Of a stretch of 32,469 bases of DNA, positions 10,266-19,086 are shown piece after piece. Source of the DNA: Minisyncoccota bacterium (lineage in GTDB: Bacteria > Patescibacteriota > Minisyncoccia > Minisyncoccales > RBG-13-42-11); NCBI GenBank assembly GCA_028687495.1, contig JAQUAA010000002.1, forward strand, positions 1-32,469. The letters are read 5' to 3'. The notes beneath the pieces were generated by a model. That model had not been told where the DNA came from. It did no database searches and saw nothing but the letters and a program-made list of their open reading frames with translations. Position 1 is the stretch's first letter; each line of letters opens with the position of its first letter. A program made the translations under genes and the position numbers.

Positions 10266-10487
10266 TTATTTTCTCTCTAATCCTAATTTTTTTAATTTTT
10301 CGTATTCTTTTTTTAATTTTTCTCTTCTCAAGGCCGCTCTTTTGCTCATTTCGGGACTTTTGGAGCGTTTGAAAAAACGGTTTGCTCTTGCCCGAACCAA
10401 AACCCCGCTTTGCTGAACTTTTTTAGAAAAGCGGCGGATTAAGCCCTGAGAATTTTCTCTTTCTTGTTTTCTTGCTTCTACAGCCAT
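10266..10487 (-). CDS. rpsU: 30S ribosomal protein S21
   Basis: A 73-aa very basic protein containing LIRRFSKKVQQSGVL...RFFKRSKSPEMSKRAALRR. Among the start sites I inspected, this is one of the few with GGAGG upstream (AGGAGGAAAGGAATTAC-ATG). Confidence 0.8.
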   Translation of the reverse strand: MAVEARKQERENSQGLIRRFSKKVQQSGVLVRARANRFFKRSKSPEMSKRAALRREKLKKEYEKLKKLGLERK

Positions 10488-12765: not shown

Positions 12766-13272
12766 ATGATCCTAATTGTTGGACTGGGAAATCCCGGCGG
12801 AAAATACAGAGATACCCGTCATAATGTCGGCTCCGAGATAATCGACGAACTGAATCTTTTGAATTTGAGGAACGTCGTTCTGGCAAAGCCCAGAACCTTT
12901 ATGAATGAATCCGGCAAGGCAGTGAAAGAATTATTGAAGAAGCATCGATTGGAATCAGACGATCTTGTCGTCATCCACGACGATATCGACATTCCTTTGG
13001 GAAAAATCAGGATCGTTAAAAACCGCGGGGCAGCCGGCCACAAAGGAGTGGAATCGATAATCAAAGAAATAAACTCCCAAAATTTCATCAGATTAAGAAT
13101 CGGCATTAAACCGGAAAAAGGCAAACCAAAAAATCCTGAAAATTTCGTTCTTCAGAATTTCAATAAAAAAGAGGAGAAGATCTTAGAAGAGGTAATAAAA
13201 AAAACCGTCCAAGCAGTTGAAGTTTTCTTAAAGGAAGGTTTGGAAAGAGCGATGAATGAATTCAATAAATGA
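12766..13272 (+). CDS. pth: Peptidyl-tRNA hydrolase
   Basis: Motifs seen: LIVGLGNPGGKYRDTRHNVG, DDIDIPLGKIR, GHKGVESI. Confidence 0.93.
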   Translation: MILIVGLGNPGGKYRDTRHNVGSEIIDELNLLNLRNVVLAKPRTFMNESGKAVKELLKKHRLESDDLVVIHDDIDIPLGKIRIVKNRGAAGHKGVESIIKEINSQNFIRLRIGIKPEKGKPKNPENFVLQNFNKKEEKILEEVIKKTVQAVEVFLKEGLERAMNEFNK

Positions 13273-13273
13273 A

Positions 13274-13309
13274 GAAGCCGGGGAATGTTTGAACATTCTA
13301 CCCGGCTTC
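13274..13309. terminator. Long hairpin between convergent pth and the small ORF (probable terminator, mainly for the minus-strand unit)
   Basis: GAAGCCGGG (13274-13282) pairs perfectly with CCCGGCTTC (13301-13309). An inner helix GAATGT/ACATTC is also possible. On the minus strand it is followed by the U-rich UUCAUUUAUUG. No U-run follows on the plus strand. Confidence 0.5.
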
Positions 13310-13329: not shown

Positions 13330-13485
13330 TTACTCCTTTGATTCTTTGCCCTGCGCTTCGGCCCGGCGCTGCTCGGCCATCTCTTTATTGATTGACCTGC
13401 ATTTGCTGCAGTCTTTACTTACTGCCTCGCATAAACTTGCCGGACCGCCGCACCACTGAGCTAAAGGTGCTCCTTCTAACGGCAT
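13330..13485 (-). CDS. Unannotated 51-aa Cys-rich small protein (hypothetical)
   Basis: Hand translation gives MPLEGAPLAQWCGGPASLCEAVSKDCSKCRSINKEMAEQRRAEAQGKESKE followed by a stop. The ATG is at 13485-13483 and the TAA at 13332-13330. It is preceded by UAAGGAGGUGAUC (13488-13500), with 7 nt between GGAGG and AUG. It falls below the ORF-track length cutoff. Confidence 0.55.
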   Translation of the reverse strand: MPLEGAPLAQWCGGPASLCEAVSKDCSKCRSINKEMAEQRRAEAQGKESKE

Positions 13486-13688
13486 ATGATCACCTCCTTA
13501 AGTTTTATACTCCAGCCTACCTGCGAGCGCCGAAGATCTACGGCATAAAGCTTTGATCTGCGGCTGTCAGCTCTAAGTTTTAAAGGAGGGATAACTTAGA
13601 ATCCATCCTCGAGTAAATAACAAAGTTACCTACTCGATTAAGCTACTCGCAGATAGACTGGAAGATAAAACTTGACGACAAACTGAAT
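13486..13688 (-). promoter_or_regulatory. Structured ~200-nt 5' leader (riboswitch-like / cis-regulatory RNA candidate, class unknown)
   Basis: P1 is 16 bp (13646-13661 with 13512-13527). P2 is a 13-bp hairpin (13609-13637). P3 consists of interleaved helices (13601-13608/13585-13592 and 13593-13600/13572-13579). P4 pairs 13529-13538 with 13555-13564. All four wobble positions in P1 and P2 are G.U on the minus strand and A.C on the plus strand. Confidence 0.6.
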
Positions 13689-13701
13689 AATATATTATAC
13701 T
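13672..13701 (+). promoter_or_regulatory. Candidate mfd promoter TTGACG-18-TATACT, -10 ends 7 nt before the ATG
   Basis: TTGACG is at 13672-13677 and TATACT at 13696-13701. The ATG is at 13709 and there is no SD. Its -10 overlaps the -10 of the opposing promoter. Confidence 0.45.
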
Positions 13702-13721
13702 ACTTTAGATGGAATTGTCAA
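13694..13721 (-). promoter_or_regulatory. Near-consensus sigma70 promoter TTGACA-16-TATAAT driving the leader+sORF unit
   Basis: On the minus strand, TTGACA is at 13716-13721 (inside the first codons of mfd) and TATAAT at 13694-13699. The predicted TSS is around 13687. Confidence 0.6.
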
Positions 13722-18770: not shown

Positions 18771-18809
18771 AAAAAAGTGGAGCCCTGCGCTATAAAGCAT
18801 GCAGGGCTC
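18771..18809 (-). terminator. Rho-independent terminator at the 3' end of the orphan RNA locus (just upstream of tsaC)
   Basis: Minus-strand GAGCCCUGC (18801-18809) pairs perfectly with GCAGGGCUC (18780-18788), 9 bp with a 12-nt loop. CAC-UUUUUU follows (18771-18779). Confidence 0.65.
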
Positions 18810-19023
18810 ACGAGGCGATGTAGATAACAATCCACATTGAGAGTAAGCTTAAACAGCTCCTCCCCTTGATGTTTCGTATTCAGTTGTAGTAACTCAAGGA
18901 AACTTAAGGGGAAAACGGATGATTACCGTACCTCCTTCCTATGAATTTTGTCACCTGAATAGTTCAAGCAAATAACATCACCTCCTTTCAATGGAAAACG
19001 GGTAAAAAGAGCGGAAGCAGGAC
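18810..19023 (-). ncRNA. Candidate ~210-nt non-coding RNA (or attenuator leader of tsaC), class unknown
   Basis: The region is bracketed by two minus-strand terminators. Hairpin AUGUGGAU-UGUU-AUCUACAU (18818-18837) has a G.U that would be A.C on the plus strand. A long-range helix pairs UAUUCAG (18955-18961) with CUGAAUA (18877-18883) and CUUGA (18964-18968) with UCAAG (18865-18869). Three GGAGG motifs are present. No ORF with an acceptable start follows any of them. Confidence 0.35.
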
Positions 19024-19053
19024 GAAAAAATCCTACTGTGATTATAGTAGGAT
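19024..19053 (-). terminator. Rho-independent terminator of the nucleotidyltransferase gene
   Basis: Minus-strand AUCCUACU (19046-19053) pairs perfectly with AGUAGGAU (19030-19037), 8 bp with an 8-nt loop. It runs directly into UUUUUU: the last stem U at 19030 plus 19025-19029. Confidence 0.65.
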
Positions 19054-19086
19054 ATAAAAATAAAAATTTACTGTCAAGTGGATAAC

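Follow-up and report, generated by a model that had tools for sequence, protein, structure and literature searches.

The window, that is the whole stretch of 32,469 nucleotides analysed here, carries on its minus strand, between the divergent mfd gene and the convergent pth gene, a promoter, a structured RNA, a Shine–Dalgarno (SD)-like site, an open reading frame (ORF) of 51 codons, and a terminator-like hairpin. The promoter of this RNA/ORF transcript (TTGACA-16-TATAAT, 13694–13721) agrees with the consensus at 12 of 12 positions, its −35 box lies within the first codons of mfd, and the same promoter precedes the RNA in relatives of several families. It is positioned 185 nt upstream of the ORF, for which no promoter of its own was found; the interval between promoter and ORF folds extremely well, and a terminator between P1, the closing helix of the RNA, and the SD site was not found. 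The terminator-like element (13262–13309) consists of a hairpin (13309–13274) with a U-rich tail. The hairpin begins 20 nt after the ORF stop codon, as had been noted when only the letters of the window were read, and with its flanks it folds with −34.7 kcal/mol (z = −6.6). Its fold is conserved with compensatory changes in the loci L021 and L027, it faces the 3′ end of pth, whose stop codon is at 13272, and a scan for consensus terminators did not list it. Over its entire length of 421 nt, the transcript has a much more stable predicted fold than shuffled sequences (z = −9.1). We propose that the ORF is transcribed as the 3′ part of one transcript that would start at the consensus promoter, contain the structured RNA in its 5′ 170 nt, and end at the hairpin shared with the convergent pth.

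Judged by its conservation, the ORF (13330–13485, minus strand, with the ATG at 13485 and the TAA stop codon at 13332–13330) is a genuine gene for a small protein. When 1.84 billion cluster representatives were searched with a profile, 36 protein clusters were obtained at E ≤ 1e-3, mostly of 44–68 aa, and in the alignment of 35 sequences Cys12, Cys19, Cys26, and Cys29 are invariant (family spacing C-x6-C-x5/6-C-x2-C), with Met1, Leu8, and Ala37 being nearly invariant. The signature of this Cys4 family comprises an MPL..A.L start, the four Cys, and a charged C-terminal helix, and conservation spans the whole length, not a core alone. In close relatives, likewise between mfd and pth, the 51-codon frame is 90% and 80% identical, and farther copies belong to a second genus of the family (G003) and to families beyond it (G056, G144/L153). 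A frame broken amid conserved nucleotides, which the sequence-only reading had named as the mark of a non-coding stretch, was not encountered: the frame and the four Cys are intact in all homologues, the substitutions are mostly synonymous and include a TGC-to-TGT change in the Cys29 codon, and dN/dS is 0.15–0.22 (Nei–Gojobori, five comparisons), as expected for a coding sequence. Other claims of that reading did not hold. It had regarded the ORF as unannotated, and an identical 51-aa protein is already on record in NCBI nr. It had also seen third codon positions much richer in G/C than those of the neighbouring genes, which was attributed to a distinct origin or expression regime or to an RNA-structure constraint. 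However, G/C contents at the three codon positions are 0.54, 0.52, and 0.54, about 0.53 throughout, with third-position values of 0.40–0.53 in neighbouring genes, and in more distant homologues synonymous changes are spread over the entire ORF, which argues against a structural constraint on it.

The statement that the protein belongs to no recognised family, and is neither a rubredoxin nor a ribosomal protein, agrees with our searches, as no Pfam family matched (best score 11.5 bits against a cut-off of 27, none at E ≤ 0.05) and only one CxxC is present. The Cys4 family is unnamed and new, and so far it has been seen in Patescibacteria/Paceibacterota. AlphaFold2 predicts three helices (8–12, 16–21, and 26–46) with moderate confidence (mean pLDDT 71.6); Foldseek gave no match to this model in the PDB, weak matches to generic UBA-like three-helix folds were obtained in a wide fold search (Z ≤ 4.3) and in a structure atlas (TM about 0.65), and a protein-atlas feature search gave no usable match. 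Most probably, the four Cys form a single Zn(Cys)4 site that would staple the small three-helix fold, and the 51-residue product with its charged tail is expected to be cytoplasmic. Small Cys4 zinc proteins include zinc ribbons, rubredoxin, and the ribosomal proteins bL36 (Cys4) and bL31 (in its zinc forms). The new family resembles them in size and in its four invariant Cys, one CxxC included, but differs in having a single CxxC, the spacing C-x6-C-x5/6-C-x2-C, and a predicted all-helical fold instead of a beta knuckle. An identification as rubredoxin or zinc ribbon was rejected, since these require two knuckles of the CxxC or CPxCG type. In one distant family member (L127:1399-1500), the first 45 nt or so of the conserved N-terminal coding region (HWLWELCRAP...) are partly duplicated in tandem upstream of the gene.

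The structured RNA upstream of the ORF, for which we built the covariance model R1, extends from 13504 to 13673 on the minus strand and consists of the closing helix P1, an optional hairpin A, a hairpin B, and a variable hairpin C. The model scores 120.5 bits on this strand against 44 bits on the opposite one, and matches elsewhere are likewise always far better on the RNA's own strand. RNAs of this type have 130–175 nt, occur once per genome, and were detected in 50 of the 151 genomes of the order as well as in 14 further genomes elsewhere in the class. In the alignment of 18 sequences, 92.7% of the cells are paired (about 40% in slid controls) and 20 pairs show compensatory double changes, which none of 500 shuffles matched; such changes are abundant in the long closing helix and in a variable hairpin. 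The RNA is flanked by the divergent mfd in 30 of 42 loci and by the convergent pth in 40 of 42. When the DNA of relatives was searched, it was the leader interval and not the ORF that matched, with the similarity stopping at the end of the leader. By these comparative criteria, the leader is an autonomous RNA that is conserved throughout the class. Rfam 15 contains no match to leader or ORF at the gathering thresholds and nothing credible at E ≤ 10, and a literature search for this RNA, or for any RNA with a CCUCC loop in CPR bacteria, returned nothing. RNase P RNA and tmRNA were rejected as identities because both are located elsewhere in the genome, and the 6S and SRP RNA models do not match. 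An SRP RNA is in any case not expected, because Ffh and FtsY are undetectable in the whole family. As an observation of its own, small SRP RNA and the SRP54-type GTPase domain of Ffh and FtsY (PF00448, above cut-off) were each found in 0 of 26 family genomes, and large SRP RNA and the Ffh M domain (PF02978) were each absent from the window's own genome, the one genome in which they were sought; all control genomes gave matches in these searches. The signal-recognition-particle pathway thus seems to be missing from the window genome and 25 other genomes of the family.

What follows the RNA is variable. The Cys4 gene stands directly behind it in at least five lineages, namely the window's own, G003, G056, G144/L153, and L126, whereas other loci have Zn-ribbon-like small proteins, small membrane peptides, or GGDEF proteins between the RNA and pth. 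A GGDEF-type protein with a conserved N-terminus (...AFRNPE..LTGA.TRREF) is found behind the RNA in at least seven lineages (L003, L008, L015, L078, L080, L092, and L104), a small 'LPEGF..FVYL' protein in L011, L079, and L096, and small membrane peptides recur in many others. No ORF of at least 30 aa was called behind the RNA in 6 of 54 loci; the RNA of G013 is immediately followed by an intrinsic terminator. Conversely, the genomic contexts of the Cys4 homologues vary, and some family members occur without the RNA (L125, L127, and one contig in which the gene is adjacent to grpE). From the variable cargo, the stand-alone RNAs, and the Cys4 members without RNA, it follows that the ORF is an exchangeable coding tail of an autonomous RNA, and on comparative grounds the transcript looks like a stable RNA of the dual-function type whose coding tail can be replaced. 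GGAGG precedes 20 of 48 ORFs behind the RNA, compared to a genome background of 9% under the same start rule, a count in which related genomes are not independent samples, but the cargos are mutually unrelated.

The SD-like site of the ORF is the 13-mer UAAGGAGGUGAUC (13488–13500), which begins 3 nt downstream of P1. Read on the minus strand, the start region is TAAGGAGGTGATC (13500–13488), AT, and ATG, with the GGAGG core (13497–13493) being spaced 7 nt from the start codon. Being the exact complement of the canonical E. coli-type 16S tail GAUCACCUCCUUA in 13 of 13 positions, it is the 13-nt SD with ideal spacing that the sequence-only reading had described. The 13-mer occurs once in the 546-kb genome (about 0.02 copies expected), and the 11-mer AAGGAGGTGAT occurs 8 times (about 0.26 expected). 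An AAGGAG-type motif is kept upstream of the orthologues in L021, L027, G003, G056, L126, and L153, and initiation at the ORF would rely on this SD-like element that is conserved across orthologues. In agreement with the earlier claim that only rpsU and this ORF are led by GGAGG, the sole plausible GGAGG-led starts in the window are those of this ORF and of an S21-like ORF at 10487. The latter (10267–10487, minus strand, 73 aa) has AGGAGG 11–12 nt before its ATG; it is S21-like as judged from its amino acids, and a six-frame search with the Pfam S21 model did not detect it. It recalls the Bacteroidia, where rpsU keeps its SD, with the difference that here the anti-SD itself appears to have been lost.

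This loss is indicated by 16S tails of relatives, as the 16S gene of the window genome is absent from the assembly and the state of its tail has to be read from six family members. These six tails, from five genera, are GGAUCACUACAUUU or GGAUCAUCACAUUU, and all six are without CCUCC, the family-type tail being GGAUCACUACAUUUCU. In the order, 33 of 36 tails have no CCUCC, two keep CCUCC, and one has UCUCC. The tails were taken from the loci L028–L065, and GGAUCA is kept in all of them, a motif that was also required by the search pattern. Loss of the anti-SD has been published for about half of the Parcubacteria (Tsurumaki et al., 2022, RNA 28:1041, PMC9297842). Since the family 16S has no CCUCC, full SD:anti-SD pairing with the ribosome is unlikely, and the ORF's "perfect anti-16S" site probably cannot pair completely with its own 16S, as extrapolated from these relatives. 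The term "anti-16S" therefore remains correct for the canonical tail and is incorrect for the six family tails. The duplex of the 13-mer with the canonical tail has a predicted energy of −22.6 kcal/mol, as compared to −10.4 kcal/mol with the family's tail, formed via GUGAUC:GAUCAC, and the GUGAUC half of the site is the only one that would pair with the GGAUCAC still present. No enrichment upstream of starts was seen for UGUAG/GUAGU, which would be a "new SD" matching the altered tail. Upstream regions in the window genome mostly contain −10-like motifs and not SD sites, as expected for leaderless messages.

The conserved CCUCC closest to the SD is part of the same transcript and lies in the RNA itself. 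Hairpin B (13571–13601, minus strand) has a stem formed by 13601–13593 with 13579–13571, and its loop AUCCCUCCUU (13592–13583) differs from the canonical 16S tail AUCACCUCCUU by the lack of one base and the exchange of another. The core of this loop recurs in 41 of 43 elements, whose stems comprise 29 different sequences. Pairing between the SD 13-mer and this loop is predicted at −13.0 kcal/mol; it comprises 7 bp followed by a U-C mismatch, and the canonical tail fits better. There is also an alternative pairing, as in the long form of the RNA GGAUGGAU (13608–13601) can pair with the AUCCCUCC loop (13583–13592) in 7 of 8 positions. This is the predicted minimum free energy structure of the window's long form, and GGATGGA does not vary among the nine long forms in alignment A1; the pairing possibly acts as a switch by which the anti-SD-like loop is concealed. 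When P1 is formed, the loop is at the far end of an approximately 28-bp helix as seen from the SD, and pairing in cis would therefore need refolding. Nevertheless, a role of the loop in cis is possible, as suggested by the SD enrichment behind the RNA, the invariant loop, and the alternative pairing with GGAUGGAU. The loop, or the alternative pairing that hides it, would modulate access to the SD and the start region in cis, which is the least certain step of our model.

Taken together, we consider it likely that the locus comprises a Cys4 gene that forms the tail of a conserved-RNA transcript, with an SD that probably has no full partner on the 16S rRNA and with a loop that may modulate initiation in cis. 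One could argue instead for an ordinary SD, that is, the unassembled 16S of this genome might, unlike that of its relatives, still end in a canonical anti-SD, and the ORF might just be a small gene with strong translation. The 13 of 13 fit and the eight copies of AAGGAGGTGAT would agree with this, as would the three of 36 tails in the order that retain CCUCC or UCUCC. Residual SD-led genes also exist genome-wide: GGAGG is found at −18..−3 in 25 of 532 long ORFs of the window genome (4.7%, background 0.8%), with a sharp peak at −10..−5 (20 of 513 genes), and GGAGG is mostly followed by U, in agreement with the canonical tail but not with the loop. Such a peak is also seen in G023 (7 of 359 genes), a genome with a 16S verified to have no anti-SD. 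However, the pattern AAGGAGG-N4-9-ATG occurs 24 times against 6 for a control pattern in the window genome, which resembles G011 (23 against 0) and G012 (31 against 9), both verified to be without anti-SD, and across 151 genomes it is 2.3-fold over the control. Furthermore, the tails of the relatives, six from five genera of the same family, all have no CCUCC, and most gene starts are preceded by −10-like motifs and not by SDs. We therefore regard an ordinary SD as unlikely.

It is also conceivable, albeit with a rather low probability, that in Paceibacteria without rRNA anti-SD the loop AUCCCUCCUU of this strongly transcribed RNA is a portable copy of the former 16S tail that reads or masks the remaining SD sites, at least in cis on the exchangeable small genes behind it and possibly in trans on the GGAGG-led genes. 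If this were true, a separate RNA would have taken over SD recognition from the ribosome; otherwise, the locus would still illustrate cleanly how a stable RNA can have exchangeable coding tails. Slightly more doubtful still is a reading in which the RNA is the missing reader in trans, with its CCUCC loop pairing with GGAGG-led mRNAs and thereby recruiting or repressing them. This reading is supported by the invariance of the 10-nt loop across the class, which points to numerous targets or to a single invariant partner, by the strong promoter, single copy, and stand-alone representatives of the RNA, and by the persistence of SD-led genes in genomes without anti-SD. On the other hand, the excess of SD-led genes hardly differs whether a genome has the RNA or not (20.9 and 19.1 per Mb, respectively, p = 0.38), and G011, G002, and G016, which are 99–100% complete, have no credible copy, G011 nevertheless having many SD-led genes. 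In addition, it is the canonical tail, and not the loop, that the flanks of the SD sites match, and a search of the 16S loci of relatives gave no sequence complementary to the loop. With the equal SD-led density, the many SD-led genes of the RNA-less G011, and the U after GGAGG, a global role in trans is unlikely; the modulation in cis described above is possible.

The peptide could furthermore be a RiPP-like or disulfide-rich precursor, or a type I toxin that is restrained by the structured leader. Its conserved Cys and its small size would fit, and the same slot elsewhere often encodes small hydrophobic SD-led peptides behind an anti-SD-like structured 5′ region, which recalls SD-sequestered toxin mRNAs. 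However, genes for modification, export/transport, or immunity were not found near the ORF, where hisS, lepB, pth, and mfd are the neighbours, and the variable genomic contexts of the homologues also give no support to the precursor role that had been speculated about. Neither a signal peptide nor a hydrophobic or membrane segment was found in the 51-aa sequence; the type I toxin reading was rejected for the window because the peptide is hydrophilic. Conservation spans the whole peptide, and the conserved partner is the RNA and not the peptide, so that the precursor or toxin reading is very improbable. That the GC-rich stretch is non-coding and represents the 3′ domain of a larger ncRNA has next to no probability and is largely refuted. 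The fold of the 421-nt transcript (z = −9.1) and a 35-nt stretch identical in the three closest sequences would be compatible with it, but the frame and four Cys are kept in 36 nucleotide-diverged clusters with the dN/dS values given above, DNA similarity ends with the leader and other genes fill the slot, and Cys4 family members exist elsewhere without the RNA.

The favoured model of a conserved RNA with a Cys4 coding tail can be compared with several known systems. Dual-function sRNAs that encode small proteins are RNAIII/hld of Staphylococcus aureus, SR1/SR1P of Bacillus subtilis, and SgrS/SgrT of E. coli. The likeness lies in joining a conserved structured RNA domain to a small ORF equipped with an SD of its own, and in the ORF-free occurrence of the RNA in relatives; here, too, the RNA domain is conserved independently of the ORF, with structural covariation. 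The differences are that the coding part is exchangeable, that the host ribosome probably has no anti-SD, and that a regulatory role of our RNA is hypothetical. C-rich-loop sRNAs that pair with SD sites are exemplified by the UCCC loops of RNAIII, the Rsa RNAs, and RsaE/RoxS, and SD-sequestering leaders or pseudoknot riboswitches by preQ1-II and SAM-II. In common with these, a CCUCC-type hairpin loop is complementary to the GGAGG of a start site, with the predicted −13 kcal/mol, but in our case the loop consists of 10 invariant, 16S-tail-like nucleotides, no Rfam family is matched, the P1 geometry disfavours a simple pairing in cis, and the pairing is a prediction. The relatives of the window show the same loss as the anti-SD-less Parcubacteria subgroup (PMC9297842), and most genes of the window genome are without SD and look leaderless. 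The anti-SD passages of that paper mention neither leftover SD-led genes nor an RNA that presents an anti-SD-like loop, whereas at our locus a perfect canonical SD adjoins such an RNA.

The locus thus combines a perfect canonical SD, a lineage with anti-SD loss as indicated by relatives, and, on the transcript of the SD itself, the only conserved CCUCC-bearing RNA that we found. It gives a candidate reader for the residual conserved SD sites of anti-SD-less Parcubacteria, in the size of a 420-nt construct, and its micro-protein represents a new and well-defined four-Cys family in bacteria whose small proteins are almost unstudied. Another region of the window, 18771–19077 (minus strand), has no ORF, folds with z = −5.2, and contains the three SD-like motifs AAAGGAGGUGAU, GGAAGGAGGU, and GGGGAGGAG. 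It was considered as a conserved partner or sponge of the CCUCC-loop RNA and rejected, as it is conserved only in one relative (G001) and is therefore not a general partner. Elsewhere in the genome, the strongly SD-led genes (AAGGAGG or AGGAGGT at 4–12 nt) cluster on the contigs C14, C27, and C29, with seven of them within about 5 kb of C14, and this cluster may be a mobile or phage-derived island.
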